From Acaryochloris marina MBIC11017 (GTDB lineage: Bacteria; Cyanobacteriota; Cyanobacteriia; Thermosynechococcales; Thermosynechococcaceae), in assembly GCF_000018105.1 (NCBI RefSeq), contig NC_009925.1, positions 6,270,001 through 6,302,000 on the forward strand: a stretch of DNA of 32,000 nucleotides, written 5' to 3'. Each line of letters begins with the position of its first letter. Within the stretch, counting starts at the first letter, position 1. Made by a program: the position numbers and the translations under genes. The notes under the pieces were generated by a model, which searched no databases, was not told the origin of the DNA, and worked only from the letters and a program-made list of their open reading frames with translations. Below are positions 9,515-31,287 of the stretch, in pieces.

Positions 9515-9522
9515 ATATTTTT
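9515..9522. repeat. Target-site duplication ATATTTTT (left copy) of the ISL3 element
   Basis: An identical 8-mer directly abuts both IS termini (9515-9522 and 10908-10915). An 8-bp TSD is the ISL3-family norm. Confidence 0.85.
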
Positions 9523-10907
9523 GGCTCTCCGGGAATTAGCGTGGTAGCCGCTAGATATAGTGTTTAGGTCACAGCGAATGTCTGATACCCATTGAGGTCA
9601 AGAGAAATCCTTTGGAAGAGTCTTTCAATATCGAAAATACCGTAGCATCGTCTTTTTAAGACTTTGACTCGGTTATTAAATCCTTCCACAAAACCACTGG
9701 TCCACCCCTCCAGGAAATAGTTGGTCATCTCGTCCATCCAATTATTGATAGTGGTCAGAAAACAATCGAATTCCTTGATGTCACTCTTGAGTACTTGTTT
9801 ACACCAAGCACGGATGGCACATTTAGCTCCGTGCTTGGTGTACCTGCCCTCAAATATCTGCGTGAGTTTCTCTCGGAGGTTGTACGCCTGTTTCAGTTGT
9901 GGAGAATAAGCAAACAATCGCTCAAGGAGTTGTTGCTCTGACTCTTTCAGATTCTCTGGTCGTTTTCTAAAAGGCCACATCGCGCCTTTGATGCTGTCAT
10001 ACTCTTGCTTAGAGAGCTCTCGTCGTAGACGTTTGACCTCACGTTTACGAACCGTATCAGCACAATTACGATAGGCTTTGGTCACATGAAAGCGGTCAAT
10101 GACAATTTTGGCTTGCGGCAATTGTTCTCGGACTGCACTGACAAATCCTTGGTACATGTCCGTACAGACGCGCTCAATGGTTTGGCGTAAATCAATGGGA
10201 ATCGATTGAAGGAAATTTGCCACTGTCTGCTGTTTACGGTCGGCTAGAACTGCCAATATATCCACCCCATCCGTCGTAGGAATCGTGATCAAAACCACAA
10301 AATCACGATGGCCTCGTTTGAGAGAAATCTCATCCATCCCCATAACTTTGAGGTCTGCATATTCGCTCCAGTCAACTTGAGCGGCAATCCAACGATCAAT
10401 GATTCCACTGACGATATCCTCACTAACGCCTAGTTTTCTGGCAACATCTGAGACCGTTGAATTGATCAAGATTCGCAGAAGCCAACGCTCATATGCTTTT
10501 GTATTGGGACTGCGAGGTTCGTGCCATTCTAAATGTTGAGTTGTTGTGGGATGGTCATCGCAATACTTGCATCGATAACGCTTGGGCCGAATTTCTAAGT
10601 AAACGGGGACTTCAAATAATGGCAGGTGACGAATCCGAAAAGGCTGATCATGACAATGGAGGTCAGTAATCTCACGTCCGCATTGATGACAGGTTGTTCC
10701 TTGAAGCGTACTCTCAATCTTGATGAGCCAATCCCCTCTCTCAGTCTTCGATAGCTCTAGAACTCGAATATCAGGAAGGTTGAGCGGGATGCGAATTGAG
10801 TTATCCATTACGCCATTGCTCTGAAGTACTACCTCAGATCATTCCATAGGGATGAAAAAGGAAACACACTAAATGTAGGACTGCTACACGCTAATTCCCA
10901 GAGAGCC
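9523..10907 (-). mobile_element. ISL3-family insertion sequence, 1385 bp, imperfect ~40-bp terminal IRs starting GGCTCTC
   Basis: The left end is GGCTCTCCGGGAATTAGCGTGGTAGC. The reverse complement of the right end is GGCTCTCTGGGAATTAGCGTGTAGC, so 20 of the first 21 nt are identical. There is a single transposase ORF, and the element is flanked by the 8-bp direct repeat ATATTTTT. Confidence 0.9.
9564..10808 (-). CDS. ISL3-family transposase
   Basis: The 414-aa protein has an N-terminal Zn-finger-like CHQCG...HCHD and a DDE region (GMDEISLKRGHRDFVV, CTDMYQGF). The C-terminal EGFNNRVKVLKRRCYG signature is typical of ISL3 transposases. Confidence 0.95.
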   Translation of the reverse strand: MDNSIRIPLNLPDIRVLELSKTERGDWLIKIESTLQGTTCHQCGREITDLHCHDQPFRIRHLPLFEVPVYLEIRPKRYRCKYCDDHPTTTQHLEWHEPRSPNTKAYERWLLRILINSTVSDVARKLGVSEDIVSGIIDRWIAAQVDWSEYADLKVMGMDEISLKRGHRDFVVLITIPTTDGVDILAVLADRKQQTVANFLQSIPIDLRQTIERVCTDMYQGFVSAVREQLPQAKIVIDRFHVTKAYRNCADTVRKREVKRLRRELSKQEYDSIKGAMWPFRKRPENLKESEQQLLERLFAYSPQLKQAYNLREKLTQIFEGRYTKHGAKCAIRAWCKQVLKSDIKEFDCFLTTINNWMDEMTNYFLEGWTSGFVEGFNNRVKVLKRRCYGIFDIERLFQRISLDLNGYQTFAVT

Positions 10908-10915
10908 ATATTTTT
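10908..10915. repeat. Target-site duplication ATATTTTT (right copy) of the ISL3 element
   Basis: See the left copy at 9515-9522. Confidence 0.85.
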
Positions 10916-11533
10916 CCTCATTTGGTTTTGGGGACTACAAGTCTCCTTCCAAACTGATCGGTTCATCTGGTTCTCTATGTTCTCATCCAAGCAATCCGGT
11001 GAAGCCATCGTTCAGGATCTCAGACAAGAAAAAAGATTAAATCTTACCTACTACACAATTTACCTGAAGGGTGTAGAAGACACCCCAAACTTCTCAATTC
11101 ACAATGCCTTTTCAGCCAAGCCTTATAAAGTCGAAACCATACATCAAAGACTGAAATCAGTGCCTATAGGGGATAAAGTATCCGTACAGTGGAAACAACC
11201 ACTATGGAGAAAGCCTTTTTACATATCAATTGAAGGTGATTCAAACATTTTAGAATCACTAGTAAGTTGCGATTGGATAATAGCATCCTGCTTTAGCTTG
11301 GCAATGATAGCCATAATAGGGTGTTTATTTACGAAGTGTTTTTGACCACTATTTGGCACTGATATATTAACAAGGCACATACTTAAATCCTGCCATTCCC
11401 CCTTCCAAGAACAGCTTGATGCTCTTTGGGAAGCATTGCTTGACTTTACGGAACCTGCTGATTTAGTGAGCTGGCTTTGGAGAGTCAGGTGGTAGCCATT
11501 GTTTCCTCAATAACTTCAAAACACCGTTTCAGC

Positions 11534-11709: not shown

Positions 11710-12042
11710 ATGGCCTGGAGTGTTCAATATTATTCCGAAACAGTTGAATCTGAGGTACTTGCTCTGCCTCCAGGTTTGTTAGCTAGATATTTGAGGCTCA
11801 CCGACCTCATGTTAGAGTTTGGTCCCAATCTGGGGATGCCTCACACCCAATCCATGGGCGATCGCCTATTTGAATTGAGGGTAAAGAGCAAGGAAGGGAT
11901 TGCGAGGGTGTTTTATTGCACCCTGATCGGCGAAAGGATAGTGATGCTGCACAGCTTTGTGAAGAAGACTCAAAAGACCCCCAATCGTGAACTCAAGATC
12001 GCGCGTCGTCGGTTAAAAGAGGTGATAGACAATGACTCATGA
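11710..12042 (+). CDS. higB: Type II toxin, HigB / Gp49 (DUF891) RelE-fold family
   Basis: The 110-aa protein carries Gp49-like motifs (LRLTDLMLEFGPNLGMPHTQSMGDRLFELRVKSKEGIARVFYC...IVMLHSFVKKTQKTP). The toxin-first order and the 11-nt overlap with the downstream HTH gene fit a HigBA module. Confidence 0.85.
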   Translation: MAWSVQYYSETVESEVLALPPGLLARYLRLTDLMLEFGPNLGMPHTQSMGDRLFELRVKSKEGIARVFYCTLIGERIVMLHSFVKKTQKTPNRELKIARRRLKEVIDNDS

Positions 12043-12322
12043 GGATCTCAAAGCAAAAGCCCTAAACAATCCAGAAGTGGCTGAAGAGTACGAAAAACTA
12101 GAGGAAGAGTTTAGTCTTTTAAGGCAAATGCTTGCTGCCCGCCAGAATGCAGGTCTAACTCAAGCTGACATTGCTGAAAAAATGGGGACAAAGGCAACAG
12201 CAGTGACCCGGCTGGAATCATCCCTCAGTAGTGGTAAGCATTCACCATCCCTATCCACTTTGCGAAAGTATGCCAAGGCAGTGGGTTGCCGTTTAGAAGT
12301 GAAGTTAGTGCCAGAACAGTAG
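12032..12322 (+). CDS. higA: Type II antitoxin, XRE-family HTH (HigA-like)
   Basis: The 96-aa protein has an HTH (GLTQADIAEKMGTKATAVTRLES). Its position and overlap fit a HigA antitoxin. Confidence 0.85.
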   Translation: MTHEDLKAKALNNPEVAEEYEKLEEEFSLLRQMLAARQNAGLTQADIAEKMGTKATAVTRLESSLSSGKHSPSLSTLRKYAKAVGCRLEVKLVPEQ

Positions 12323-12353: not shown

Positions 12354-12468
12354 ATTGCATTCCATTAGACCAAATAGACTAGAGTCATTTTTCTTCGTAT
12401 CGATGAAATACTATTCAGAGAGAAGAATTCAGATAAGTATATCTGTGGAATAAATCCCGAAACAGCTG

Positions 12469-13389
12469 TTAGGAATTCTCGGGAGTTTGTTTGAGCATGT
12501 TCATTGCCATTTCCATACTTACCTTCAAACGGTTCACTGAAGCGGCTAGAACTCCGATTTCATCTTTTGATTTATGTTCAAAGTTAGAAACTAATGCCCC
12601 TGTGCTCACTCCCCGAGACCACTTGGACATATTTGTGATGGGTGAAATAATTGAAAACTTTAGAAACAAGTTGAGAATGATGGCGGCAACCATGAAACCA
12701 GCTGCCAAAATACTGATGACTAATACTTGCAATCGCCGAGCTTCTGCAATGACACTGCTCGCGGGTACGGAGATAATCTGGGCACCGACAATTTCATCTA
12801 ACTTCCAACCAAAACCACCATCACGTCCATAAGTTCTAATTTGACTGGCAGGTGCTCTATTTGGGGTACTATGACAGACCAAACAGCTTTCACTCTTGAT
12901 TTGCAGCGGTCTCGCAATATAAAACAGGTCACCAGCAGCAATTTTCCGAAAACCGGATTGCTCCTGTAAATCTGGCTGCCTACGGAATTTCTCAACAATT
13001 TTAGTTTCAAACTTATCTGCTTTGTCTGAGAGGGAAGTTGGATTTAACGTCGCTTCTCGGTAGAAAAAGTCACTGTATTTCTTGCGCCTTTGCAAATTAC
13101 TAAAAACTTCATTAGCAGAATATGCAGGAATACTCGTCTTGATAAACTGCCCATCAATTTCTAGATTTGGAGAGAGCGCTTTAATCGTGTCTTTGCTGAC
13201 CTGCTTGTTCGTATATTCTCGAACAGCAGTCATTGTTTCAATCAGCACTAAAGCTTTATCTTTGACCTCTTGTTCGGCATTCCTCTGCAATACACTAGAT
13301 AATAGCAAGCCATTCATTAAAATAATCACTAGAAAAACTGAAAGCAAAATTAGGTTTAATTTGACACCCAGTTTTAGATTTCGAATCAT
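12469..13389 (-). CDS. Tll0287-like (DUF3365) c-type-heme sensor domain protein with TM anchors and a C-terminal HAMP domain; no output domain
   Basis: The order is N-terminal TM, an extracytoplasmic DUF3365-like region with the heme-binding CxxCH motif CLVCH (12871-12885), a second TM, and a HAMP segment (DEIGVLAASVNRLKVSM). The ORF then ends. I place the start at ATG 13389 (MIRNLKLGVKLNLILL). The tracked ORF extends to 13476. Confidence 0.8.
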   Translation of the reverse strand: MIRNLKLGVKLNLILLSVFLVIILMNGLLLSSVLQRNAEQEVKDKALVLIETMTAVREYTNKQVSKDTIKALSPNLEIDGQFIKTSIPAYSANEVFSNLQRRKKYSDFFYREATLNPTSLSDKADKFETKIVEKFRRQPDLQEQSGFRKIAAGDLFYIARPLQIKSESCLVCHSTPNRAPASQIRTYGRDGGFGWKLDEIVGAQIISVPASSVIAEARRLQVLVISILAAGFMVAAIILNLFLKFSIISPITNMSKWSRGVSTGALVSNFEHKSKDEIGVLAASVNRLKVSMEMAMNMLKQTPENS

Positions 13390-13922
13390 TTCAGCACCTT
13401 TTAGCAAATAGAAAACCAAATATTTTTTCTGAATTAAGTTGAATGAATTCAGGCATTGACTCATACCAATAGTCATTAAAAACTATGAAATCTATGTACC
13501 CATTTAAACTTCAAGTATGGCTAGCTTGGGTGATATGCTTGCGAAATGCTTTAAAAGAATGATACAGACTATCTTTGTGGATAACTCGTATCATTCTTCA
13601 AGAACATAAACTAAGAACTCGAAGTATTTCTGGCTTAATTCATCAAATATTTGAATATCTTTTCAAGCTTATAGACATATAAAATAGAGCTTAAAGTTTA
13701 TATGCTATTTCATTTAATAGATTTTTAGTTCTATCTATTTATCAACTTACATTCCAATCATTATGTAGCCAGAAATATATCTTTATTCTTGATATTGAAA
13801 GAATTTACAAAGTCAATCACTTAGTAAAACAAGGGAAATATCTTTACTAAGTTAATCTTTGTTTTAAAGGGCATACTAAATTCATGCCGTCAGCCAATAT
13901 CAATCCTGCATAAATAGCAAGA

Positions 13923-13958
13923 TTTTAAAAGCCCAAAGATCCAGAAGAACTCTGGGCT
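13923..13958 (-). terminator. Rho-independent-type hairpin after RTX copy 1 (AGCCCAGAG-N11-CTTTGGGCT + UUU)
   Basis: The 9-bp stem (13930-13938 / 13950-13958, one G-U pair) is followed on the minus strand by TTTAAAA. It lies 8 nt after the stop of the frameshifted C-terminal segment (13966). Confidence 0.55.
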
Positions 13959-13965
13959 CAGAAAC

Positions 13966-15289
13966 TTAACTAACGTAATCAACGTAGCTAGAGTTGAGAC
14001 TAAAAGTTGTGTTGTTGGCAATAAAGGCAACCTGATCACCCACCCACGAGTTGTGTTCAATGGCATTAATAAAGGTACCGGTTACACCATTGACGGAACC
14101 AAGAGATAAGTAATATCCGCTACTGTTGCCATACAACTGAACGGTATCTTGGATATTGCTGAAATCTTCAATGTAGGCATAGATTACCGTTGGAGGTACT
14201 GGGGTTATCGTAGAATCGACCGCTGCTATCCCCTAACACAAATAGATCAAATCCATTTCCTCCATCTAAGGTATCTATGGAACCTACAGACTCGCCCATA
14301 GTCGCAGCGCCCCAAAGCGTATCATCGCCGTCACCGCCATCGAGATCGTCGTTACCGTAACCGCCGACTAATTGATCATTGCCCCCATCGCCGCGAAGAA
14401 AGTCATTACCATTCCGCCCCCATAGCCGATCTTCACCATCGCCACCATAGAGGTAATCAACGTGATAGTCCCAACCGCCATCTAGGCGATCATTGCCCGC
14501 TTCACCATAGAGGACATCGCTTCCATCCCCTCCATAAAGGTAGTCATTTCCTGTGCCACTGTACAAGAGATCTCCTCCATCATCACCGTAGAGCCAGTCA
14601 TTACCTGAGTCACTGTAAAGCTGATCATTATGGTCTCCTCCCCGGAGCGTGTCATTACCAGAACCGGCAAAAAGAGTATCAGTATCCGCTTCACCGCTTA
14701 GGTAATCATTGCCCGCTTGGCCATACAGACGATCCACTCCGCTCCCACCATAAAGGGAATCATTGTCTATTCCACCAAAGAGGGAATCATGATCAGTGCC
14801 ACCGTAAATGCGGTCTTTGCCAGCCCCGCCGTAAAGCATGTCGTTTCCAGACCCACCACTCAGGTAGTCATCACTATCTGCACTAGATTCAACAGTGTGG
14901 TCGTGATAACCATATAAGCTGTCATTGCCAGAGCCACCATACAGGCTATCTCTGCCAGCACCACCATTGAGAACATCATTGCCGGCTTCTCCATATAGCG
15001 TGTCGTCACCGATTCCACCATCCAGTGAATCATTGCCTGGCCCAGCATAGAGTTTGTCATTTCCTTTCCACCCAAAGAGAGAATCGTTTCCTGATCCGCC
15101 AGAAAGGACATCGTTGCCTCCAAGGCCAAATAGGCGATCATTTCCGCTACCGCCATAAAGGGTGTCGTCATCATCCCCTCCAATGAGGGTGTCGTTCCCT
15201 CCATAGCCATACATGAGCCATGGCTCATGCCCACTAGTAGCTTTTCCAAAATCGTCTTTGGTCGGGTCACCGTAGTAGTAGCGCGTCAT
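13966..15289 (-). pseudogene. RTX / hemolysin-type Ca2+-binding repeat protein, copy 1, frameshifted near 14180 (open part 14168-15289)
   Basis: The ORF carries dozens of GGxGxDxL nonapeptide repeats. Relative to copy 2 (AATCTAGATTATGCC), copy 1 reads AATCTATGCC, a 5-nt deletion, and this gives a premature TGA at 14168. The homologous C-terminal ~67 codons continue in another frame to the TAA at 13966 ([41 protein letters not shown]...SSYVDYVS). Confidence 0.7.
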
Positions 15290-15458
15290 AGTGATTCTCC
15301 TTTGGCTGAAAGATATGTTTTCGTTTTTTTCGCAGTCACCACCATCCCAGGCAACACAGAGCGTTACGGGAAAGTCGTGATAGATGAATTCCGGTATCAG
15401 TGCTTATCTGCTGGGGGCTGACAGATGGACATGAAGGTTAAGTCCTTTCGGAATCTGT
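15290..15458 (-). promoter_or_regulatory. Conserved leader/promoter region of RTX copy 1 (paralogous to 16701-16870)
   Basis: The SD is AAGGAGA. A conserved block, CTGGGATGGTGGTGACTG (rc of 15333-15351), starts 44 nt upstream of the ATG in both copies. A second block, AGGACTTAACCTTCAT (rc of 15431-15446), lies ~140 nt upstream in both. Confidence 0.4.
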
Positions 15459-15563
15459 AAGCGCTTGTATCTCAATGATTGTCTTACCTTGACGTTGTTT
15501 CACCGATGACAACACAGTACTCGTTAGAGCCCAAAGCACTTGATCAACTCTGAGCTCTGGGAC

Positions 15564-16700
15564 TTAAACGACGTAATCGACGTAGCTTGAGTTTAGATCG
15601 AAGTTATTGGTGTTATTGGCAATAAAGGCGACCCGATCCCCTCCCCAAGAGCCAGGTTCAATCGCGTTAACAAAGGTGCCTGAAACACCATTAACTGAAC
15701 CGATAGACAGTGAATAGTCACTACTGCTTCCATTCAACTGAATGGTGTCTATTGTCCAGTTGAAATCTGCGATATAGGCATAATCTAGATTACCGTTGGA
15801 GGCACTGGGGTTATCGTAGAACCGACCCGTGCTATCCCCTAGCACAAACAGGTCATTCCCATTACCACCCGTTAAGGTATCGATGGAACCAATAGACTCG
15901 TTATTGGTGGCCGCACCCCAAAGCGTATCGTTGTCGTTACCCCCATTGAGGTTATCGTTGCCATAACCACCGATAAGCTGATCATGGCCATTATCACCTC
16001 TGAGATAGTCGTTGCCATACCGTCCCCACATGCGATCATTGCCTCTGCCACCATAGAGGTAATCGGCGTGATAGTCCCAACCACCATCTAAGATATCGTG
16101 ACCATCTTCGCCGTAAAGGAGATCTTCTCCATCACTGCCATAGAGGGAATCATTGCCAATGCCACCAAATAGGAAATCATTACCGGAAACACCGTAGAGG
16201 AAATCATTACCGGAACCACCGTAGAGTGAGTCTTCACCAAAGCCACCGCTGAGGGTATCGTTACCAGATTCGCCATACAAGAGATCGTCGCCCTTGTCGC
16301 CTCTTAATTCATCATTACCAGTACCACCGTACAGGGAATCATTATGATCGCCTCCATAAAGGGTGTCATTGCCATTACCCCCTTTTAGTAAGTCATTCCC
16401 TGCTCCACCACTTAGGTAGTCGTTACCACCCTGATGATAGGTGAGTCCTTGCGAGAAGCCATATAAGCTGTCATTGCCGGAGCCACCATAGAGAGTATCT
16501 TCATCAGCTCCACCCTCAAGGAGATCATTACCCGAACCACCATAGAGGGTATCTTCATCTCTGCCTCCTCTCAGAGTGTCATTGCCCCCGTAGCCATACA
16601 TTTTCCAAGATTCCCAGGTGTCAAACCACCAACTGCGCTTGGTTATTGTTGCTCTTTTGTAGTCGTCTTGATTTGGGTCGCCATAATAGTAACGAGTCAT
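15564..16700 (-). CDS. RTX / hemolysin-type Ca2+-binding repeat protein, copy 2 (intact)
   Basis: It has GGxGxD nonapeptide repeats throughout. The start is set at ATG 16700 (MTRYYYGDP, identical to the copy 1 N-terminus) with the SD AAAGGAGA. The 27-codon upstream extension in the ORF track is rejected. The C-terminal non-repeat domain is intact. Confidence 0.85.
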   Translation of the reverse strand: MTRYYYGDPNQDDYKRATITKRSWWFDTWESWKMYGYGGNDTLRGGRDEDTLYGGSGNDLLEGGADEDTLYGGSGNDSLYGFSQGLTYHQGGNDYLSGGAGNDLLKGGNGNDTLYGGDHNDSLYGGTGNDELRGDKGDDLLYGESGNDTLSGGFGEDSLYGGSGNDFLYGVSGNDFLFGGIGNDSLYGSDGEDLLYGEDGHDILDGGWDYHADYLYGGRGNDRMWGRYGNDYLRGDNGHDQLIGGYGNDNLNGGNDNDTLWGAATNNESIGSIDTLTGGNGNDLFVLGDSTGRFYDNPSASNGNLDYAYIADFNWTIDTIQLNGSSSDYSLSIGSVNGVSGTFVNAIEPGSWGGDRVAFIANNTNNFDLNSSYVDYVV

Positions 16701-16870
16701 AGTCAATCTCCTTTTGTTGAACGATAGGTTCAAAGTTTTTAGACAGCCACCACCATCCCAGCCCATACCGTGCAAGTGCATAGCTGGGATAGTTGCAGTT
16801 GAAAAGTTGTAATAGTCTTGGGGGAATCAACTAGGAATGCAGGTTACGTCCTCGGTAGGCCATAGACTGT
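16701..16870 (-). promoter_or_regulatory. Conserved leader/promoter region of RTX copy 2 (paralogous to 15290-15458)
   Basis: The same two conserved blocks occur at the same spacing from the ATG (16744-16762 and 16837-16852). Confidence 0.4.
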
Positions 16871-17320
16871 TCAGCGGACCTCCGCAGTGCTAGGGATGAT
16901 CCGGGTTCTGGAGTCAAGGGAAGAGAATGAACTGGATGTACCAACCTATATGAGCCACAATTTGGGATCACGCTGGTTGAACAGATATCACCTACTAAAA
17001 TCCAGCTCTAGTGCAAGTCTTACACTCTTATGTTCGAGGGAGTAATGATGGTTCTCCTGCAGTCTTGGTGCGTTTTCATTCCATAACTTCAATCTGCTTG
17101 AACCATCAAAATGACGCCACGTAAGATCACAACTTAAGCGCTCAACTTAAAGGCCAACTTAAACTAAATCTGCCAGAATTATTGAATTCACTGCGTTTCA
17201 GTTGTTGTGGGACCTTTAAGAAATAAGTTGAAATATCTTAACTTGGGCATGCAACATAACGACTAAGGTTATTTCCTTCATCAATGGACTGCAGACATGG
17301 TTGTGCTGGGAGTTTCAAGT

Positions 17321-17636
17321 ATTCGTTTTGGGCAGTTTTGATTCTAGAATGAGAAAAGAGTAAATCATCTGTGGCTGTGCTGGTATGCTGCAACACTGAT
17401 TGCCTGTATGACTAACCCCCAAAAGCCATCAAAACGAAGGCGGGGCGTTATTCTCACCGCAGCAGGTTGGCAACGGTTGCAAACCGCACAACAGCAATCA
17501 GAACTGACCCATAACGGTGGCAATCCTTATACCGTTGAGGACTTAAACGAACTCACTCATCTAAGTCGAAATACACTATCGAAGGTTAGGCTGCGCAAGA
17601 AACCGGTTGATCGACACACCTTAGAAGCCTACTTCA
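17321..17636 (+). repeat. 316-bp near-identical 5' module (87-bp leader + first 76 codons) of STAND/WD40 paralog 1; copy of 21656-21971
   Basis: Base-by-base comparison by eye finds 6 mismatches in 316 bp. Identity collapses after ...GCCTACTTCA. Confidence 0.95.
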
Positions 17637-20600
17637 CAACCTTTGGTCTCAACCTCACCCCAAAAGACTATAATCGAACCGCCTTAGAGCGAGCAGAAGC
17701 ACCAGAACAATTCGAGACAGAACCAGTCCCCCCACCTTCTAATCACCAAGATTGGGGGGAAGCCATTGATGTATCTATCTTTTATGGACGAACTACAGAG
17801 TTAGCAGCTCTAAAACAGTGGGTTGTAATTGATCGATACCGGCTGATTAGTATCTTTGGTATGGGGGGAATTGGCAAAACGGCACTATCTGTGAAGCTAG
17901 CCCAACTTGTACAGAGAGATTTTGACTATGTGATTTGGAGATCGCTCCGTAATGCTCCCACGATGGAATCGCTCCTCGGTGAACTGGTCCCATTTCTATC
18001 TCGTCACCAAACCACAGAACCAACCATTGGAAAACTATTGCAGTGTTTTAAGCAATCCCGATGTCTCGCGATTCTTGACAACGTGGAAACGATTTTGCAG
18101 AGCAATCGAAACGCTGGATATTTCCGTCCCAACTATGAACCCTATGGTGATCTACTCAGGGTTATTGGTGAAACGGATCATCAGAGCTGTTTGCTTCTTA
18201 CAAGTCGCGAGAAACCCGTTGAAATGGCTAAGTTCATAGGGTCGGAAGAAGCAGTAAGAACACTCTCCCTCAGCGGTTCTCTGGAAACCTCATTAGCCCT
18301 CATTGAAACTCAGGAATTAATTGGAACTCAAGACCATAAACAACAACTGTGTGAAGCCTGTGGTTGTAGTCCTCTAGCCCTAAAAATTACAGCTAGTTCT
18401 ATTCACGAATTATTTGATGGCAATATCGCTCAATTCCTTTTCGAGAAAACTATTGTTTTTAACGGAGTGCGTCGACTGCTAAATCAGCAATTTGAGCGTT
18501 TGTCAAGTCAGGAACGCAGCATTATGTATTGGCTAGCAATTAACCGTGAATGGACATCTATTTCAGAACTAGATGATGATTTGATCCCTAAGATTCCCCG
18601 TTCTCACTTGTTAGAGTCTTTGGAATCACTCTGTTGGCGTTCGCTAATTGAAAAGCGTTCTGGTAAATATACTCTTCAGCCAGTGGTGATGGAGTATATT
18701 ATTGGACAGTTAGTTGAACGAGTTTGTCAGGAATTAATTGAGTGGGAGATTGATATTTCTCTATCATCTTCCGAGCCTAATTTTTTGACGAAAACCTCTC
18801 TTTTTCATGTCCATGCTCTCCTTAAAACCAATGCCACAGATTACATTCGTGAGAGCCAAAAACGTCTGATTCTACAACCGATTGCTGAACAGATTCAACA
18901 AACTTTTAGCACACCTGCTTCATTAGAAAAGCACATCAAAGCTATCCTAGCGAGCTTACGCAGCAAATCACCTAAAGTCGGAGCCTATAGCAGTGGTAAC
19001 TTGCTTAATCTCTGTGGTCTTCTAAACCTAAATTTAGCAAATTACAATTTTTCTGGCCTGGATATCCGTCAGGCTTATCTTCCTGGTATTGACCTACCCA
19101 GGGTCAATTTTTCCAATGCTCATATCACATCCTCCATTTTTGCAGAGCCTTTGGGGGATATGCTGTGTGTTGCTTTCAGTCCAAATGGTCAAATGATTGC
19201 AACAGGAGACTCAAACGGTTTCTTGTCTGTGTGGCAAGCAAACACAGGCCAGAGGCTGCTGACGTGTCAAGGACATGCCGGATGGGTGATGTCAGTAGAT
19301 TTCAGTCCTGATGGAACGCTGTTGGCAAGTAGTAGTAATGATCAAGACATTCGACTTTGGGATGCTCATACAGGACAATGTCTAAAAATTTTACAGGGTC
19401 ATACCAACCTAGTGTGGTCAGTACGCTTTAATCCTGATGGGAAACATCTTGCCAGTGGGTGCCATGATCAAACGATCAAAGTGTGGAATGTTTCATCTGG
19501 AGAATGTTGTCACACCCTGCGAGCACACGCCAGTGGAGTTTTTGATGTTGTCTTTTGTATGGGAGGAAAAACCCTAGCCAGTAGCAGTATGGATTGCACG
19601 GTGAAACTTTGGGATTGGGCGAATGGGAGCACCCTAAAGACATTAGAAGGGCATACTGATGCAGTCCTCTCGCTTGCTTACAACACACTGGATCAAATTT
19701 TGGTGAGTGGCGGTCGTGATAAGACCATTCGGCTGTGGAATATAGAGACCGGAGACTGTTTACAGATTCTTCAAGGACATATCCATTGGATCTGGGGAGT
19801 CAGCGTGAGTCCCGATGGTCAAACCGTGGCGAGCAGCAGTAGCGATTGCAGTATCAAGCTGTGGGATGTAATCACAGGGCAATGCTTACAAACACTTTTA
19901 GGACATACCAGTGGCTTGTACGGTATCGCCTTTAGCCCAGATGGTCAACGCCTCACCAGTGGTAGCTCGGATCAAACGGTAAAGTTCTGGGATATTTCTA
20001 CAGGAAAAGTATTACGGACTGTGCAAGGACACACCCGACAAATTCATCAGGTTAGATCATTAGCTCTCAATGTCGATGGCCACACATTAGCTAGTAGCAG
20101 CGATCGCCAAATCATTCGGTTCTGGGATCTTCAGACAGGGAATTGTTCTCAGACTTTACAAGGGCATACTGGATGGATCTTTGGCATAGATCAAAGTCCT
20201 GACGGGCAGTGGCTAGCGAGTGCAGGTGGAGAAGATCAAACAATTAAAATTTGGGATGTTAAAACTGGCCAATGCGTTCAAAATTTGCAGGGGCATCTGG
20301 CTTGGGTGTTTGATGTTGCCTTTAACCCAGCCAGCCCTTCAGAATCGAATAAAACGTTATTGGCAAGCGGCAGCCAGGATCAAACCATCAAACTATGGGA
20401 TCTTGACCGCGGTGAATGCTTAAAGACACTATATGGGCACAGTCAAACAGTTTGGACTGTTGCTTTTAACCCCCAAGGAACGCTTCTAGCCAGTGGTGGG
20501 CAAGACCATACGGTGAAAGTATGGAATATACCAACAGGTTCCCTCCTTACAACTTTGCTGGGACATACCAATGAGGTATTGTCCGTCACCTTTAATCCTC

Positions 20601-21046
20601 AAGGGACAATCCTAGCAAGTGGTAGTCAGGATCAAAGCATTAAACTGTGGGATGTAGAGAGGGAACAGGCTCTAAAAACCATATCGCAACAAGAGATGGG
20701 GCATATTTGGACTCTGGCGTTCAGTCCAGATGGCCACCTCCTTGCTAGTGGGAGTGTGGACCATATGATTCGGTTGTGGGACATTCATACCGGTGAGAAT
20801 GTACAGACATTAAAAGGGCACACGAACTGGGTGCTTTCAGTCTGTTTTAACACCCAAGGAACAGTGTTAATCAGTGGCAGTGCCGATGCCACCATAAAGC
20901 TGTGGGACTTACACACAGGAGATTGCCTAGAAACTCTAAGACCCGATCGCCCCTATGAAGGTATGAATATTACTGGAGTTACGGGCTTAACTGAGGCCCA
21001 GAAATCCACACTTCAGAACTTGGGTGCCATGTCAAATGATAGTTAA
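17408..21046 (+). CDS. STAND P-loop NTPase (NACHT/NB-ARC-like) with N-terminal HTH-like module and 14 C-terminal WD40 repeats, paralog 1
   Basis: The 1212-aa protein starts with an N-terminal ~85-aa XRE-like HTH candidate ([36 protein letters not shown]). Walker A is GMGGIGKT (aa 151-158) and Walker B is CLAILDN. A helical linker follows. I count 14 units of the type LASGSxDxT[IV][KR]LW[DN] (about 19165-20940), which would make two 7-bladed propellers. The conserved tail is [25 protein letters not shown]. Confidence 0.9.
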
Positions 21047-21059
21047 GTTTAATCTCTTA

Positions 21060-21651
21060 CAACTCATTTCGGGTTTTTATCCAGTTGACCTGAAATATCA
21101 GCTTTTTAAGCTAAAATGAACAACAAAGAAAGAAGAAAAAGGGAATTTAATCATTCCTCTTTGATTATTCACCTCATGATTCCGTTTTCTATGCATGACA
21201 ATCTGGATCTCAGTTACAGAGACCTCTAGAATTTATAGATTTCAAGTTGAGACTAACTTTGGCAAAAATGCCGAAGATTGATCATCGTGTATGCCAAGCT
21301 TTTCAAGGCTGAGATGTTGCACCAAGGGTCCTGCCTATGAGAAAAGGGCGTGCAGTTATATCCAGAAACAAGCATGCCAAAACACATCCTTGCCCACGCC
21401 CAAGGGCTAGTCTACAACCTTTGGTTGAGGTTCCCGACTGCCGATGTGCAAATGGGGCAAGACAAATGTCTCAAACTGCTCAAGAGTTAAGAATGTTGGA
21501 ATCCATTTATGGGACTTAGTTTGAGGCATCTGCACTCCTAACGAACGGTAAACTAAATGACTGGCGTCATTTAAGTCTTTAATGATGGAAGGCCATGCAG
21601 GGTATGGGTTTTAAGTGATCTGAACCATGGAATAAAACCCGAAATGAGTTG
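21060..21651. mobile_element. IS-derived remnant / MITE-like element bounded by 18-bp inverted repeats CAACTCATTTCGGGTTTT
   Basis: The left IR is 21060-21077. The right IR, 21634-21651, is its exact reverse complement. The ~590-bp interior holds only a 40-codon transposase-like N-terminal fragment. The element starts 14 bp after the paralog 1 stop and ends 4 bp before the duplicated leader begins. No clear TSD was found. Confidence 0.45.
21407..21529 (-). pseudogene. Possible N-terminal fragment of an IS4/IS5-type (DUF4096-like) transposase
   Basis: The 40-codon ORF MPQTKSHKWIPTFLTLEQFETFVLPHLHIGSREPQPKVVD* resembles, from memory only, the N-termini of cyanobacterial IS5-like transposases (...FxxFVLPHLxxGxRGP...). 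The downstream frames are broken. Confidence 0.3.
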
Positions 21652-21655
21652 AAGG

Positions 21656-21971
21656 ATTCGTTTTGGGCAGTTTTGATTCTAGAATGAGACCAGAGTAAAT
21701 CATCTGTGGCTGTGCTGGTATGCTGCAACACTGATTGCCTGTATGACTAACCCCCAAAAGCCATCAAAACGAAGGCGGGGTGCTATTCTCACCGCAGCAG
21801 GTTGGCAACGGTTGCAAACCGCACAACAACAATCAGAACTGACTCATAACGGTGGCAATCCTTATACCGTTGAGGACTTAAACGAACTCACTCATCTAAG
21901 TCGAAATACACTATCGAAGGTTAGGCTGCGCAAGAAACCGGTTGATCGACACACCTTAGAAGCCTACTTCA
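21656..21971 (+). repeat. 316-bp near-identical 5' module of STAND/WD40 paralog 2; copy of 17321-17636
   Basis: See 17321-17636. Confidence 0.95.
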
Positions 21972-24900
21972 ACACTTTCGGCCTCACTCTCCGTGCCGAA
22001 GATTATAGCCAAAGCACCACAGATGGAGAGAAAATTCCCAAACTAGCACAAACATCTAAGAGCCCTCTAATTTCTAACCGACAAGATTGGGGTGAAGCAA
22101 TTGATGTATCTATCTTTCATGGGCGTAATGAAGAACTGTCAATACTCAATCAGTGGCTAAGGCAAGAACGATGTCGTCTCATCAGCATCCTTGGCATAGG
22201 CGGGATCGGCAAAACAGCACTTTCAGTTAAGTTAGCCCAACAACTTCAGCATGAATTTGAGTACATAATCTGGCGTTCGTTACGCAATGCCCCTAACCTA
22301 GAAACCCTTCTTGAAGAACTCGTACCTTTCCTGTCTACAGATCAGGACACCAAAACTGATACGCTTCACTTTCTCAAATGTTTGCAAAAGTCTCGCTGTC
22401 TAGTGATTCTAGACAACTTGGAGACAATTTTACAACCGGGAGGCCAAGCTGGATATTATCGCCCAGGTTATGAAAATTATGGTGATCTACTAAGAATAAT
22501 CGGGGAATCTAGCCATAAAAGCTGTTTTATCATCACGAGTCGGGAGAAACCTGCTGAAATTGCAGTGTTTGAGACTATAGAGTTTCCCGTTCGATCTCTT
22601 CAGCTGAGCGGCTCATTAGAAACAGCTTTGGCTTTGGTTGATACAAAGGACTTACTCGGAACTGTTCAGAACAAAAAGGACCTGTGTGAATCCTATGGGT
22701 GCAGCCCTTTGGCACTCAAGATTGTCACTAGTACGATTAAAGACTTATTTGGAGGGGACATTGCCCAGTTTCTAGCAGAGGAGACAATTGTCTTTAATGG
22801 AGTGCGTCGTTTATTAGATCAACAATTTGAGCGCCTAACTGAGCTTGAGCGCACTCTTATGTATTGGCTCGCGATCAACCGTGACTGGACTTCGATTTCA
22901 GAACTCGTCACTGATTTGGTGCCAAATGTCCCTCGGTCCAAACTGTTGGAATCCCTGGAATCGTTAAGTTGGCGTTCTTTGATTGAAAAACAACCAGGCA
23001 AATATACACAACAGCCTGTAGTGATGGAATATGCGACTGAATCGTTGACTCAGCAGGTTGTATCAGAGCTCATGACTCAATCCTTTTCAAGATTTACCCA
23101 CCATGCCCTGCTCAAAACTTCAGTCAAGGAATTTGTCCGTAATAGTCAATGCCGACTGATATTAGATCCTGTCCTTCATGCGCTTAAAACGGAACTACGA
23201 TCTCCTTCCGCGTTGGCAAAGCATTTGCAAGCCGTACTATCGACATTACGGCAAAATCAAGATTACCGATTGAGCTATGCCGGGGGTAATGTGTTGAACT
23301 TATGTCGTCAAGGCCAGCTTGACATCAAAGGCTTCGACTTTTCACAACTGGCCATTTGGCATGCCTTTCTACAAGATGTTGAACTCCAGCAAACCAATTT
23401 CACTGAGGCTGAATTTTCAAATGCTAGCTTTGCTCAAACCTTTAGCAGCATTTTATCGTTGGCGTTTAGCCCTGATGGTCAACTGCTAGCTGCATCTGAC
23501 ACCAATGGAGAATGCCACTTGTGGGACGTTGCAGATGGTCAACTCCTCTTAACACTTCCCGGAGTGGATTGGGTACGATCAGTCGCCTTTAATACTAATG
23601 GCAAGCTGTTGGCCAGTGGAGGGGATGACTACAAGATTGTATTCTGGGATATCCAAACTGGGCAGTGCCTCAAAACCCTACAAGAACATACCGGTCGTGT
23701 CTGCGCTCTCATGTTCAGCCCCAATGGTCAGGCTTTGGTGAGCAGTAGTGAAGATCAAACCATACGTTTGTGGGAAGTGAACAGTGGCGAGTGCTGCGCG
23801 ATAATGTCTGGCCATACCCAACAGATATGGTCTGTTCAATTCGATCCAGAAGGCAAGCGGTTAGTCAGTGGGGGAGAAGATAAAACCGTTAAAATCTGGG
23901 ATGTACAGACCGGACAATGTCTCAACACTTTTACAGGACATACCAATTGGATTGGGTCTGTTGCCTTTAGCCCAGATGGGCAACTGGTGGGTAGTGCCAG
24001 TCATGATCAAACCATTCGTTTGTGGAACGCTCAGACCGGTGAATGCCTCCAAATCCTTAAGGGGCACACCAATTGGATTTGGTCAATTGCTTTTAGTCCA
24101 GATGGACAAATGCTGGCTAGCGGCAGTGAGGATCATACGGTTCGCCTTTGGAATGTTCATACAGGTGAGTGTTTGAAAGTTCTTACTGGACACACTCATC
24201 GAGTGTGGTCTGTTGTGTTCAGTCCCGATCAATCGATGCTGGCAAGCGGGGGTGAGGATCAGACTATACGATTATGGGAAATGTCCCGATTGGTTTCTGA
24301 AGAGTATTCTGCTGATAGTCGCACATCCCAGCTACATTGGCCTCTCTCAGCTCGATGTTTGCGAACCTTACAAGGCCATACCAACCAAGTTTGGGGGATC
24401 GCGTTTAGCCCCGATGGTCAGCGTTTAGCCAGTGTCGGAGACGAGAAGTTTATTAGGATCTGGCACACCGAAACTAGGATATGTAACCAAATTTTAGTAG
24501 GACATACTCGCCGGATCAGTTCCGTTGATTGGAGTCCAGATGGTGTCACCTTGGCTAGTGGTGGTGAAGATCAAACAGTTCGACTCTGGGATATTAAGAC
24601 TGGAAGTTGCTTGAAAATCTTGAGTGGACACACCAAGCAAATTTGGTCAGTCGCTTTTAGCCCAGATGGTGCCATTCTTGCGAGTGGGGGCGAGGATCAG
24701 ACGATCAAACTGTGGCTGGTTGATAGACAAGATTGTGTCAAAACAATGGAAGGTCATAAGAACTGGGTCTGGTCTCTGGATTTCAACCCTGTCAACTCCT
24801 TATTGGCAAGTGGTAGCTTTGACCATACTGTTAAGCTCTGGGATATCGAAACGGGGGATTGCGTTAGAACATTGGAAGGGCATCAAGGATGGATTATGGG

Positions 24901-25375
24901 CGTAGCTTTCAGCCCTGATGGTCAGCTTCTTGCGAGTGGGAGTCCTTACGATAAAACCATACGGATATGGGAGGTGCTTACCGGAAAGTGCCTAGAAATC
25001 TTGCCTGAACAATCTGCATATTGTTTAGCCTTTTCTTCTCCACTTAGAGCACCATCCTCCGAGCAAGATGCCATCCTTGCTATCGGCGGATTAGATCAGA
25101 CCATAAAGCTTTGGAATACTAACACAAAAAAAATTACTTGCTTACCAACTTTACATAAGCGTTGGATCTTTGACATCGCCTTTAGTCCTGATTGTCAGAC
25201 CATTGCTAGTGGAAGTGCCGACGCAACTGTGAAGCTGTGGGATGTCAGTGAAAGAGCCTGTCTCAATACACTCAGACCACATCGACCTTATGAAGGTATG
25301 AACATCACTGGGATAACAGGTTTGACCGAGGCTCAAAAATCTACACTTATGGATTTGGGGGCAATCGCGAATTAA
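21743..25375 (+). CDS. STAND P-loop NTPase (NACHT/NB-ARC-like) with N-terminal HTH-like module and 14 C-terminal WD40 repeats, paralog 2
   Basis: The 1210-aa protein has the same architecture and register as paralog 1. Walker A is GIGGIGKT at aa 151-158, Walker B is CLVILDN, there are 14 WD40 units (about 23450-25270), and the tail [25 protein letters not shown] starts at codon 1178 in both. The first 76 aa differ from paralog 1 at one residue. Confidence 0.9.
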
Positions 25376-25503: not shown

Positions 25504-25508
25504 TAGTA
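25504..25508. repeat. 5-bp target-site duplication TAGTA (left) of the Tn3-family element
   Basis: TAGTA directly abuts both IRs in direct orientation (25504-25508 and 31283-31287). A 5-bp TSD is characteristic of the Tn3 family. Confidence 0.8.
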
Positions 25509-25694
25509 GGCCCAATTGAAGGGTTGCTGACACCAGGGACAACGAAAGCTACAACCCTTTCTCAGTAATAGTTACAGGCATTAAGAAGTGTAAATACCAT
25601 CGACTTACACTACTCTTAAATCATAAGTTTTATTTATAGTACATTAGCTTGCCTTACGCTCTAGTGAATTCACTTTTAATAGGAGCGTAATCGC

Positions 25695-27824
25695 ATGAAA
25701 CGGAAATGGCATCCAGAAGAGCTGATTGAGCATTGGTCCATCCAGCCCGATGAAGCACATCTATTGGCTAGGCGTAAAGGCGTTACTCTTTTAGGATTTG
25801 TCCTGCTGCTTAAATTTTTCCAATATGAAGGACGTTTCCCCGAACAGAAGTATGAGATTCCTCGCATGGCGATAACTTTTGTGGCAGAGCAGTTAGACTT
25901 GCCGCCAGAGCAGTTTCAAGACTATAAGTGGCGAGGGAGAGTCGTTAAATATCACCGGGCCCAGATTCGCCAATTTACTGGATTTCGACAAGCCACTCTT
26001 TCAGATCAAAATCAGCTACGTACTTGGTTAGTCGATACAGTCCTGAGTCAAGAGCAGGATTACCATCATCTGAAATTGAAAGTCTATGCTCAACTGCGTA
26101 CTCTTCAGATTGAACCACCCACCCCTGCTAGAATTGAGCGTTTAATCCGGTCCGCTCAGCGTCGGTTTGAGCGTCAGCTTTTTTCCTCAACCCTCAAGCA
26201 GCTGTCCAAGCAAACTCAGACTGAGCTTGATGAATTGATCCAAGAACCCAAAGTGACGCCGGGTAAAGAGATACCAGATCCGCCCCTGAGTGCCTTAAAA
26301 AAAGATCCTGGACCCGTGGGTCTCAATAGCCTGCTTTCAGAAATCATCAAGCTCCAACGCCTCCGCCAAGTGGCTTTGCCAGATACCTTGTTTTCTCATC
26401 TGACCCCACGAGTTCTGGAGTGTTATCGGCTCCGAGTGGAGACAGAAACCTTATCAGAGTTGAGGCATCACCCCAAAACCATCCGACTCACCTTACTCGC
26501 GAGTTTCTGTTGGCAGCGGTGCCAAGAGATTATCGACAACATCATGGATTTATTGATTCAGATCGTTCATCGCATTGATACACGCAGCAAGAATAAAGTG
26601 ACGTCAGAGGTGATCGCTAAAGTCAAAAAAACCGACTCTCATACCCAGCTGTTTTATCAGGTGGCCACCGCAGCCCTGGCCACACCAGATGGCTTGGTCA
26701 GAAATGTTATCTACCCCGTTGCTAGTGAGCAAACTCTGGAAGCATTTGTTGACTCCTACAATGATGGCGGTCAGACTTACCGACAACTTCTACACTCGAG
26801 GATCCGTTCTTCCTACGGTCATCATTATCGGCAAATGCTTCCTGCGGTACTGGAAGTGATTGACTTTCGGTGCAATAACAAGCAATACCAGCCCATCCTC
26901 CAGGCTGTGGATTTACTCAAAGCCTATGTGGACACCCCCCGAAAACCTTATGCCTCAGCAGACGACGTTCCCATCGAAGGGGTCGTTAGTGCAGACTGGC
27001 AAGAGACGGTATTGGGTCAGGATGAAGACCAGCCAGACAAAGTAGATCGCATCGCCTATGAGATGTGCGTCCTCAGGGCCCTGCGAGAGAAACTACGGTG
27101 TAAGGAAATTTGGGTCGCCGGTGCCAATCGCTATCGAAACCCCGACCTGGATTTACCCCAAGACTTTGACGAGCGGCGAGAGGAATATTACCAGGATCTA
27201 CAACAGCCCCTAGAGGTGGAAACCTTCATCGCTCAAATCCAGGCTGATATGGAAAACGCCTTGACCCGTTTAAATCAGGGGATGCCTCACAACTCCAAAG
27301 TTGAGATCTTGAGTAAGCGTGGAGGACGAATTAAGGTATCCCCGCTTGAGGCTCAACCGGAACCCATGAACATTCACAAGCTCAAGGAAGAGATCAACCA
27401 GCGGTGGTCATTAACGCATTTGTTGGACGTCCTCAAAGAGGCAGACTTTCGGATTGATTTCACCCAGCATTTCAAGAGTGCGGCTAGTCGTGAAATATTG
27501 AGCCCCCAGTCCCTGCGCAAGCGCCTACTGTTGTGTATTTACGGACTGGGCACCAATTTAGGAATTAAGCGCATCGCTCATTCAGAAGCCGATGCAGGAT
27601 ACTTTGAATTGCATTATGTCCGACGCAAGTTTTTAAGCAAGACAGCTCTCAGCTGTGCGATTACGGATGTGGCCAATGCGATTTTCCGGATTCGCCTTTC
27701 TCATATCTGGGGGGAAGCCACCACGGCTTGTGCGTCTGATTCTCGGCACTTTGAATCTTGGGACCAGAATTTGATGACGGAATGGCATGTTCGCTATGGC
27801 GGCCGGGGGGTGATGATCTACTGG
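25695..27824 (+). CDS. tnpA: Tn3-family transposase TnpA, exon 1 (codons 1-710)
   Basis: The N-terminus is DUF4158-like (WSIQPDEAHLLARRKGVTLLGFVLLLKFFQYEGRFP). The long helical middle and the start of the DDE domain (ACASDSRHFESWDQNL...RYGGRGVMIYW) follow. The reading frame then runs into intron sequence (VRFVG*) right after codon 710. Confidence 0.9.
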
Positions 27825-28453
27825 GTGCGATTCGTTGGCTAGAAACTAGACCTGAATAGGGTTTGAGGGGATTAGCCGCAAGCGTAAAGAAGGGGAAAAT
27901 ATCCCAACTGTACCTTGACAACTTAATAGCCATATAGGTGAGAGTCAGTATCCTAGACCGCTCTAGTCCTATCCCGCAGGTGCAGCGGTGACAGCATTTC
28001 CCCCAGGTTCGCGACTAGCCATCAACGCCTGAAGCGGGGAAAAAAGGAGGTAACAGGGAGCCTAGCTCTGAACCCCTTCGAGCAAGAACTTATGAGTAGC
28101 GAAAGCGAAGATGTGGTTAACCCACCGTAATCATTAACCAGCGAAATTAGGTTGATAACGCTGGGAGTCCCAAAAGGGCAAGGATATACGGAGCTGGCGT
28201 GTCCAGTAGCGACCAGTTAGCACTTCCAATAAACCCGGTGGAGCGCATCACTCTAACAGTTCAATCAATGGCTATTAGGAACGAAGTAACCCCCGCCTAT
28301 CTCTCTTGGAGGTCGATTGGCTAAGAGTAGGTGCTAACCAGAAGTTAGGCGGTGGGAAGGATTGGGTCAAAAGCAAAAGCCCCACTGTAATGGTGAGGAT
28401 AAGCAGACAGACTCACGGTGACTTGGAATGAATAGGAACAAGTAGCAATAAAT

Positions 28454-30184: not shown

Positions 30185-30203
30185 CAAGCACCAAGCCACT
30201 GAG

Positions 30204-30237
30204 GAGCCGTGTAAATCGAAAGATTTACGCACGGTTT
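30204..30237 (+). ncRNA. Group II intron domain V (catalytic hairpin)
   Basis: The sequence is GAGCCGTGTAAATC-GAAA-GATTTACGCACGGTTT. It has the AGC triad near its 5' end, a GAAA tetraloop and a 2-nt bulge on the 3' arm, which is the canonical 34-nt DV geometry. Confidence 0.85.
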
Positions 30238-30278
30238 TGAAGCCAAGTCGGAGGAGTGATCCTCCGGCTTAGGTTAAC

Positions 30279-31097
30279 CATGTCGAGAAAAAATCCGTGT
30301 GTATCTACTCGCAACTGAAGAAGTGTTCTTCCTCGGAGGTGGCCTTTATGGTGAAGGGCGTACTTCGCCACTGTACGCAAATGTCCGTGAATAAAAGCTA
30401 TGTGGATACCCATGGCCAAAGCGAGGTGGGGTTTGCCTTTTGCTATTTGCTGAACTTTCAGCTGATGCCCCGCTTCAAGGGCATCAACAAGCAGAAGCTC
30501 TATTTACCGATGTCCGGGCAGAAGAAGAAGTATGTCTATCTCAAGGCGATTGTGAAGCGCCCCATGCGTTGGGATCTGGTGCGGGAGCAATATGAGCCAA
30601 TGATCCAGTTCACCACCGCAATGAAGCAAGGGACCGCCGAACCTGAAGCGATTCTGAGTCGGTTCACTCGCAACAACATTAAGCACCCCACCTATCTTGC
30701 TTTGGCTGAATTAGGCCGAGCTATCAAGACCATTTTCCTGTGCCAGTATTTGCACGATGAAGCCTTACGGCAAGAGATCAATGAAGGTTTGAATGTGATT
30801 GAAAATTGGAATAGTGCCAATGACTTCATCTTCTATGGCAAGAATGGTGACTTTGCCAGTAATCAAACGGCGATGCAAGAGCTGTCCATGCTTTGCCTGC
30901 ACCTACTGCAAATCAGCCTGGTTTACATCAATACTCTAATGATTCAAAAAGTACTTTCTGAACCCACGTGGATGAATCGTATGCAGGAAGAAGATTTGAG
31001 GGCGTTAACGCCGTTGTTTTACCTTCATATCAATCCTTATGGACGTTTCCGCCTCAACATGAATGAGCGTCTGGTGATTGAAAACTTGGCTGCGTAG
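30279..31097 (+). CDS. tnpA: Tn3-family transposase TnpA, exon 2 (272 codons + stop)
   Basis: Exon 2 starts HVEKKSVCIYSQLKKCSSSEVAFMVKGVLRHCT...SYVDTHGQSEVGFAFCYLLNFQLMPRFKGI. This aligns with the classical Tn3 TnpA segment ...YTHISDQYAPFHTKVI...[30 protein letters not shown], which holds the second catalytic D. It is in frame with exon 1 and with the tracked ORF 30297-31097. Confidence 0.9.
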   Translation, partial: HVEKKSVCIYSQLKKCSSSEVAFMVKGVLRHCTQMSVNKSYVDTHGQSEVGFAFCYLLNFQLMPRFKGINKQKLYLPMSGQKKKYVYLKAIVKRPMRWDLVREQYEPMIQFTTAMKQGTAEPEAILSRFTRNNIKHPTYLALAELGRAIKTIFLCQYLHDEALRQEINEGLNVIENWNSANDFIFYGKNGDFASNQTAMQELSMLCLHLLQISLVYINTLMIQKVLSEPTWMNRMQEEDLRALTPLFYLHINPYGRFRLNMNERLVIENLAA

Positions 31098-31282: not shown

Positions 31283-31287
31283 TAGTA
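31283..31287. repeat. 5-bp target-site duplication TAGTA (right) of the Tn3-family element
   Basis: See 25504-25508. Confidence 0.8.

Follow-up and report, generated by a model that had tools for sequence, protein, structure and literature searches.

Two neighbouring genes of Acaryochloris marina MBIC11017 raise the question of how proteins that have become dissimilar over most of their length can begin with almost the same nucleotide sequence. The genes, here called P1 and P2, follow each other in the 32,000-nucleotide stretch of DNA that we analysed (NC_009925.1, positions 6,270,001 to 6,302,000; referred to below as the window, whose own numbering is used throughout). A first, sequence-only reading had pointed out the shared segment and had offered recent gene conversion or recombination, a swap of modules and selection for identical regulation and output as explanations. 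The features on which the question turns are the following.

17321 to 17636, + strand: identity tract, copy 1 (leader of 87 nt; in P1, codons 1-76 plus the opening base of codon 77)
21656 to 21971, + strand: identity tract, copy 2 (leader and codons 1-76 of P2; the same sequence is found in strain MBIC10699)
17408 to 21046, + strand: P1, a 1212-aa STAND protein with an XRE-like HTH (aa ~5-90), an NB-ARC domain (aa ~125-330) and 14 WD40 repeats
21743 to 25375, + strand: P2, a 1210-aa paralog with the architecture of P1

Extent and edges of the identity tract

Direct comparison of the two tract copies, each 316 nt long, gave 6 differences (98.1% identity). Two of them, at 17355 and 17356, lie in the leader, and four, at 17446, 17448, 17494 and 17509, lie in the coding part, which begins with the start codons at 17408 (P1) and 21743 (P2). 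V14A is the sole amino-acid change, the other three coding differences being synonymous. This recount agreed in every detail with what had been read from the letters at the outset. The noncoding leader is identical over its 87 nt except at the two positions named.

In the codon alignment of P1 and P2, nucleotide identity was 98.2% over codons 1-76 compared with 57.6% over the remainder, where amino-acid identity was 52%. Identical amino acids were encoded by the same codon in 72 of 75 cases inside the tract and in 243 of 575 outside it. The Nei-Gojobori method gave a dS of 0.056 and a dN of 0.006 for the tract, compared with a dN of 0.41 and a saturated pS of 0.80 for the rest of the genes. 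The longest exact run measured 127 nt inside the tract versus 18 nt outside. The maximal-scoring segment of the match/mismatch vector reached 292, a value attained in none of 10,000 permutations (permutation maximum: 61). Identity in the tract is significantly above that of the homologous flank (98.1% versus about 58% at the nucleotide level), as is expected of a conversion tract, and synonymous and noncoding sites have been homogenised together with the protein, which argues against selection at the protein level. The abrupt divergence beyond the tract and the lower similarity of the rest of the proteins, both noticed in the first reading, were borne out by the ~58% nucleotide identity and the saturated synonymous sites to the right; instead of a uniform divergence profile, codon alignment and permutation test revealed a sharply delimited tract.

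At the right edge, identity stops between 17636 and 17637, at residues 76/77. The next codons differ synonymously at once (ACC/ACT, TTT/TTC, GGT/GGC), and identity falls from 100% to saturated divergence over a single codon rather than gradually. Homology does continue to the right, but no exact run there exceeds 18 nt. At the left edge, the 121 nt upstream at the same offset of 4335 nt were 21% identical, which is the random level. No significant local alignment was found to the left of 17321/21656, and the homology that gene conversion would require on the left flank is therefore missing. The space between the two genes is filled by an insertion sequence (IS) remnant.

21060 to 21651, no strand assigned: IS4/IS5-family remnant, internally deleted, 592 bp, with terminal inverted repeats; fills the P1-P2 spacer

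The remnant matched both ends of an IS that occurs in 1181-bp copies on Acaryochloris plasmids (88-93% identity) and lacks IS positions 251-949. Its end at 21651 is separated from tract copy 2 by 4 nt (AAGG), in agreement with the distance noted at first. Once the remnant is removed, the stop codon of P1 lies 17 nt from the tract. A scan also called a terminator-like hairpin of 13 pairs with a T-rich run at 21638-21667, in which the end of the IS remnant pairs with the start of the P2 tract; if functional, this hairpin would insulate P2 from read-through out of P1 or the IS.

Within the tract, all six differences fall into the central 155 nt (17355-17509), the first 34 nt and the last 127 nt being perfect, and four of the six form two tight clusters (AA/CC and C.T/T.C). 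Under uniform placement, the probability that 6 differences are confined to the central 155 nt is about 0.014. Such clustering may stem from chance, from patchy repair of a heteroduplex or from a second exchange nested in the first. The clustered differences are a faint hint of a second, nested exchange, which would have been easy once 316 nt of identity existed.

The two proteins and their N-terminal domain

Both proteins combine the two hallmarks of the STAND class, an NB-ARC domain above the curated threshold and a superstructure-forming repeat array. In Pfam, NB-ARC (PF00931) scored 37.8 and 34.9 bits against a cut-off of 23.5 (E = 1.7e-9 for P1), and the C-terminal repeat array was recognised as WD40 in 14 and 13 stretches (E = 3.9e-153 and 7.7e-162). 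The WD repeats are 60-72% identical within and between P1 and P2. The sole sequence match in the PDB was the NB-ARC protein 9h2l (6e-6). The PADLOC models did not place the proteins among the defence STANDs (Avs-like), giving only a P-loop-level match (PDC-S27, E = 0.002-0.005). The C-terminal tails (20919-21046 and 25254-25375) share 84% of their amino acids and 72% of their nucleotides, far more than the preceding WD40 blades. This indicates that the tails are probably a separate conserved motif and not a second identity tract.

The identity tract covers most of the N-terminal domain.

17408 to 17683, + strand: full N-terminal domain of P1, predicted HTH (aa 1-92); the tract stops 47 nt before the domain end, in helix 69-78 (nt 17612-17641)

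A search of a 1.84-billion-protein library with this domain returned 431 representative clusters, the match typically spanning query residues ~5-90, and among these 431 representatives the domain nearly always sits N-terminally in cyanobacterial NB-ARC proteins. Pfam gave a weak match to HTH_26, below its 22-bit cut-off (14.6-16.5 bits, E 0.01-0.04), and several homologs are labelled XRE-family HTH in one source. An AlphaFold (AF2) model built from 39 family members had a mean pLDDT of 75.8, exceeding 80 for residues 11-90, and a linker (residues 94-104) with pLDDT below 50 that is disordered in the model. It consists of a strand (14-16), helices 18-35, 43-50, 54-62 and 69-78 and a further strand (88-90), that is, four helices and two short strands, compared with the five helices of the XRE fold. 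The top fold matches in the PDB were weak (E = 0.06-0.3, TM 0.35-0.6) and all of XRE/Cro type: ClgR, HigA2, C.Esp1396I, HipB and DdrO. The model and the matches point to an XRE-type HTH at the N-terminus of P1 and P2. Its position fits a predicted DNA-binding output domain, with which close homologs of SARP/BTAD type agree; one of them, P0179, carries a SARP/BTAD DNA-binding N-terminus in place of the XRE-like domain.

Conserved positions continue beyond the tract: F79 is invariant, L81 and L83 are nearly so, and a DY motif occupies 87-88. According to the model, the HTH domain runs to about residue 90, and the right breakpoint is not a module boundary. The proposal that modules had been swapped at a domain boundary finds no support, as the domain extends over ~90 residues and the tract already ends in helix 69-78, at residue 76. 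Because the edge lies inside the domain, selection on the module cannot have fixed it there.

Age of the paralogs and of the tract

Over residues 1-76, 26 relatives were 36-72% identical to P1/P2, with values of up to 89% between other pairs. In a regression over 299 pairs, N-terminal identity tracked NB-ARC identity and was predicted to be 55% (sd 8.5) at the 65% NB-ARC identity of P1 and P2; the observed value was 99%. In a library of 1.84 billion representatives, no protein exceeded 64% identity to the N-terminus.

The NB-ARC domains of P1 and P2 are 65% identical to each other and 67-69% identical to those of P0151 and P0001, two homologs from other cyanobacteria. In neighbour-joining bootstraps, P1 and P2 were sisters in 200 of 200 replicates for the N-terminal domain, in 91 of 200 for NB-ARC and in 1 of 200 for residues 451-570; tract and rest are phylogenetically incongruent in these trees, which were all of the neighbour-joining kind. 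Because their NB-ARC domains are no closer mutually than to other cyanobacterial homologs, we take P1 and P2, on the strength of these sequence comparisons, to be old tandem paralogs on which the tract is a recent overlay. Outgroup identities were equal for P1 and P2 and gave no signal of donor or recipient.

A scan of genome contigs with the 111-aa N-terminus detected one distant locus (L001, from a Prochloraceae MAG; 63%), and a scan of metagenome contigs with the same query gave no match. A word-indexed protein search returned no match to the N-terminus, and its matches to residues 1-570 did not exceed 57%. Look-ups of the exact protein were empty for P1, P2 and one RTX gene, and for two neighbouring genes they led to strains 99.9-100% identical to the window only. 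No third tract copy was present in the window or, by tblastn, on the Acaryochloris plasmids; a further copy elsewhere in the chromosome may conceivably have been the donor.

The chromosome of MBIC10699 (AP026075.1, L007; a single contig of 6.4 Mb) matched window positions 12438-22470 at 99.9%, with five SNPs and one 5-nt indel. It carries both tract copies, which differ at the same 6 positions as in the window, and has one additional SNP in the leader of P1, at 17367. The divergence between tract copies (6/316 = 1.9%) is ~38 times the 0.05% found between the strains (5 SNPs in 10,033 nt). Judged by these two values, the event is recent compared with the split of the paralogs, yet older than the split of the sampled strains.

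P2, intact here, is cut in MBIC10699 by an IS with a DDE_Tnp_1_5 transposase, inserted directly behind window position 22470, and what is left is an NB-ARC fragment of 242 aa; at least one strain can thus do without P2. P1 is adjoined by a tandem pair of RTX (HemolysinCabind) paralogs (14168-15289 and 15564-16781, - strand; blocks of 71-78% nucleotide identity), and the 5-nt indel relative to MBIC10699, at 14180, changes one RTX product from 442 to 373 aa.

Proposed origin of the tract

We consider it highly probable, from the sequence comparisons above, that the tract goes back to one recent non-reciprocal recombination event between old paralogs, either a conversion or a duplication followed by an in-register deletion. 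The first reading's central claim, a recent gene conversion or recombination between STAND paralogs, is upheld in this form by the identity of synonymous sites and leader, the abrupt edges and a family norm of 36-72%. A 316-nt segment of one gene would have been copied over the homologous position in the other, long after the genes had diverged and well before the sampled strains split. The partners were probably copies of the chromosome. The six point differences would have built up since the copying, and a second, nested exchange may have come afterwards. We infer, rather than observe, that the exchange was non-reciprocal, with one copy as donor and a direction of transfer.

The two junctions would differ in kind. 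On the right, the junction would be in register and lie in the most conserved stretch of the HTH (VDRxTLExYF), where a short run of identity could support strand exchange. On the left, it would be a non-homologous or microhomology joint just past the stop codon of P1. Two routes can be envisaged. By the first, gene conversion would have been resolved at both ends in very short homologies, on the left in a motif of the old leader. A strict version of this route is mechanistically awkward: RecA-type conversion needs flanking identity, of which there is none on the left and only runs of at most 18 nt on the right. With homology ending at the left edge, conversion of the strictly homologous type is not the sole option and perhaps not the best one. 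By the second route, a P1 unit reaching from 17321 to ~17 nt beyond the stop codon would have been duplicated in tandem, and an in-register deletion at VDRxTLExYF would then have joined the new copy, up to codon 76, to the old P2 from codon 77 onward. This route would explain why identity starts just after the P1 stop, and it needs no homology on the left. The tract behaves like a conversion tract and falls short of proven gene conversion. As a result of the exchange, two proteins with different NB-ARC and WD40 parts would now share the helices of the HTH and the 5' leader.

Alternative explanations

The tract might instead have been homogenised continuously since the duplication by recurrent homologous gene conversion, in a long-term concerted evolution from which the remainder escaped by divergence or diversifying selection; the left edge would then be the duplication junction. 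An edge 17 nt past the P1 stop, with the IS taken away, is what a tandem-duplication joint should look like, the 316 nt of near-identity permit further RecA-dependent events, and perfect outer parts with differences in the middle hint at nested events. Erosion of the edges, however, should have produced a gradient instead of a drop within one codon, the SNP of MBIC10699 at 17367 is still unhomogenised inside the tract, and an edge within the domain is not one that selection on a module can hold. We therefore regard long-term concerted evolution as unlikely, though with an appreciable chance.

The proximity of the IS remnant allows another explanation, in which the exchange began with a break or strand transfer at the IS's right end, or the leader and N-terminal segment travelled along with the IS. 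The tract does begin 4 nt from the IS end, and IS activity is high in this region: within 20 kb, the window and MBIC10699, which are 99.9% identical, differ by three ISs. However, any insertion into a spacer of 17 nt necessarily lands near the tract, and the distance of 4 nt is therefore unremarkable. Neither an IS or IS-end relic to the left of the P1 tract nor an IS inverted repeat at the tract start was detected at a significant level (3352 of 5000 and 1337-2912 of 5000 shuffles scored as high). Because five full-length copies of this IS have no target-site duplications, the IS flanks are silent on the order of events. An origin driven by the IS appears doubtful to us.

The surroundings of the locus hold further mobile elements. 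The ISL3 element ISAcma10 (9516-10920; 99.6-100% identical to plasmid copies) is absent from the corresponding site of MBIC10699, the target duplication being evident there as an overlap of 8 nt, and MBIC10699 in turn has a 1081-nt IS630-like insertion between window positions 12438 and 12439. A Tn3-family element with 44-nt inverted repeats (91% complementary) extends from 25504 to 31287. Its transposase gene (25695-27842, resuming at ~30297-31097) is split by a group II intron with an RT/maturase/HNH ORF (28454-30184). The intron is 97% identical to MBIC10699 plasmid copies, and those matches also overlap annotated Tn3 family transposase genes. Taken together, the IS and intron sequences of the window have plasmid-borne counterparts in MBIC10699 with 97-100% identity. 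A Gp49-like/HTH_3 pair (11710-12322), in the arrangement of a HigB/HigA-type toxin-antitoxin system, lies between IS elements upstream of the locus.

The shared leader contains a perfect palindrome, read from the sequence and not statistically remarkable.

17341 to 17350, also 21676 to 21685, no strand assigned: candidate operator, perfect 10-bp palindrome ATTCTAGAAT

We considered the idea that leader and HTH have been homogenised as a matched pair in recurrent exchanges, the leader carrying an operator (e.g. ATTCTAGAAT) for the shared HTH. We give this idea a slim chance. If it is true, two differently tuned WD40 sensors would be wired to one identical autoregulated output, and repeated events would have left their mark in the grouping of the differences near the centre and in the flawless 3' part of 127 nt.

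A consensus scan called no sigma-70-like promoter inside the leader. The assumption that the tract is confined to the promoter and the N-terminal module accordingly holds for a leader and an N-terminal coding part; no promoter was called in the leader, and no module boundary coincides with the end of the tract. No Rfam match was found at E <= 1, and the fold of the leader was no better than that of shuffled sequences (z = +0.75). By eye, the upstream region of L001 shows no similarity to the shared leader. Two tiny uORFs are present, at 17349-17363 (ATG AGA AAA GAG TAA) and 17385-17399 (ATG CTG CAA CAC TGA), and the AA/CC difference turns K into P in the first of them; both uORFs are probably meaningless.

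Purifying selection on the nucleotides themselves, imposed for instance by an overlapping element, by a regulatory RNA or by a leader rich in operators, would account for identity at silent sites. The tract includes the leader with its palindrome, and identical regulation would plausibly be useful to both genes. Against this, the domain of the relatives is just 36-72% identical to that of P1/P2, the leader of L001 is unlike, neither Rfam nor the fold of the leader indicates a structured RNA, and synonymous identity stops abruptly in the middle of a helix. Selection cannot explain an identity of 99% when the family domain lies at 36-72% and the synonymous sites and the 87-nt leader are included. 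For the same reasons, and with the edge in mid-helix, the suggestion that selection keeps regulation and output module identical finds no support, and we judge selection on the nucleotides to be very improbable.

Short-read data bear on the assembly. Two Logan contigs stop at window position 17350, 30 nt into the repeat, and a third stops at 17445, just before the difference at 17446. A de Bruijn graph with k=31 must branch at such positions if the repeat has two contexts. One further contig (L008, Logan SRR29694081) does not break at 17350 and joins the upstream flank of P1 to the P2-type CC at 17355-6; this is either a path switch of the de Bruijn graph within the repeat or a real strain polymorphism, that is, ongoing exchange. 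A collapsed or chimeric repeat in the assembly would fit the breaking of short-read assemblies in the repeat and the mixed L008 in graphs that cannot phase it, but it can practically be dismissed, since the copies differ at six sites with both ORFs open, both copies recur, differences included, in the independent chromosome of MBIC10699, and a true repeat in two contexts yields contigs that stop at 17350.

Discussion

Our findings describe a clean, well-bounded and recent exchange between bacterial NLR-like (STAND) paralogs that have otherwise diverged to saturation, with one junction that lacks homology. We regard the tract as one more example of a familiar type of event, an ordinary recombination footprint, and not as a new kind of system.

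Ectopic conversion and concerted evolution of bacterial paralogs, such as tufA/tufB in Salmonella, are said to have been reviewed by Santoyo and Romero in 2005. Near-identity that includes silent sites, inside diverged paralogs of the same genome, is common to such pairs, to duplicated genes of Acaryochloris and to P1/P2. The P1/P2 tract differs in measuring just 316 nt, 228 nt of which lie in a gene of 3.6 kb. In contrast to classical RecA-dependent conversion, the background of P1/P2 is saturated and one edge is without homology, so that conversion of this classical type is insufficient by itself. Acaryochloris genomes contain many, often recent, duplicates and several recA copies, and gene conversion has been inferred for a minority of the duplicate pairs (PMC3156569).

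Among eukaryotes, clusters of plant NLR (NB-ARC) resistance genes contain mosaic paralogs produced by unequal crossing-over and gene conversion. They resemble P1/P2 in their tandem NB-ARC genes, repeat-type sensors and chimeras with sharp breakpoints. P1/P2, in contrast, are bacterial and only two, and the exchange affected the N-terminal output domain and the leader instead of the repeats. The nwd/hnwd STAND family of Podospora anserina undergoes concerted evolution in which WD repeats are reported to be homogenised and shuffled (PMC1805685, PMC2873952). Both cases concern WD40 STAND paralogs that exchange sequence within a genome; unlike in nwd/hnwd, the WD repeats of P1/P2 are only 60-72% identical, and the N-terminus is the exchanged part.

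In terms of architecture, MalT and AfsR/SARP-NB-ARC proteins are STAND transcription regulators with a DNA-binding output domain. P1 and P2 share with them the succession of a DNA-binding domain (predicted in P1/P2), a STAND NTPase and a repeat sensor; their regulatory role, in contrast, is putative, and their HTH is detected weakly by sequence.

The tract also carries a practical warning for annotators and short-read assemblers, as a repeat of 316 nt breaks contigs and can yield chimeric paths. If leader and HTH were indeed homogenised as a matched pair, the locus would be a bacterial counterpart of the 'many sensors, one signalling head' arrangement of eukaryotic NLR clusters. For Acaryochloris, prone to duplication and rich in ISs, the exchange between P1 and P2 means that the output end of a sensor can be exchanged independently of its NTPase and repeats, and that such a swap need not follow the borders of domains.
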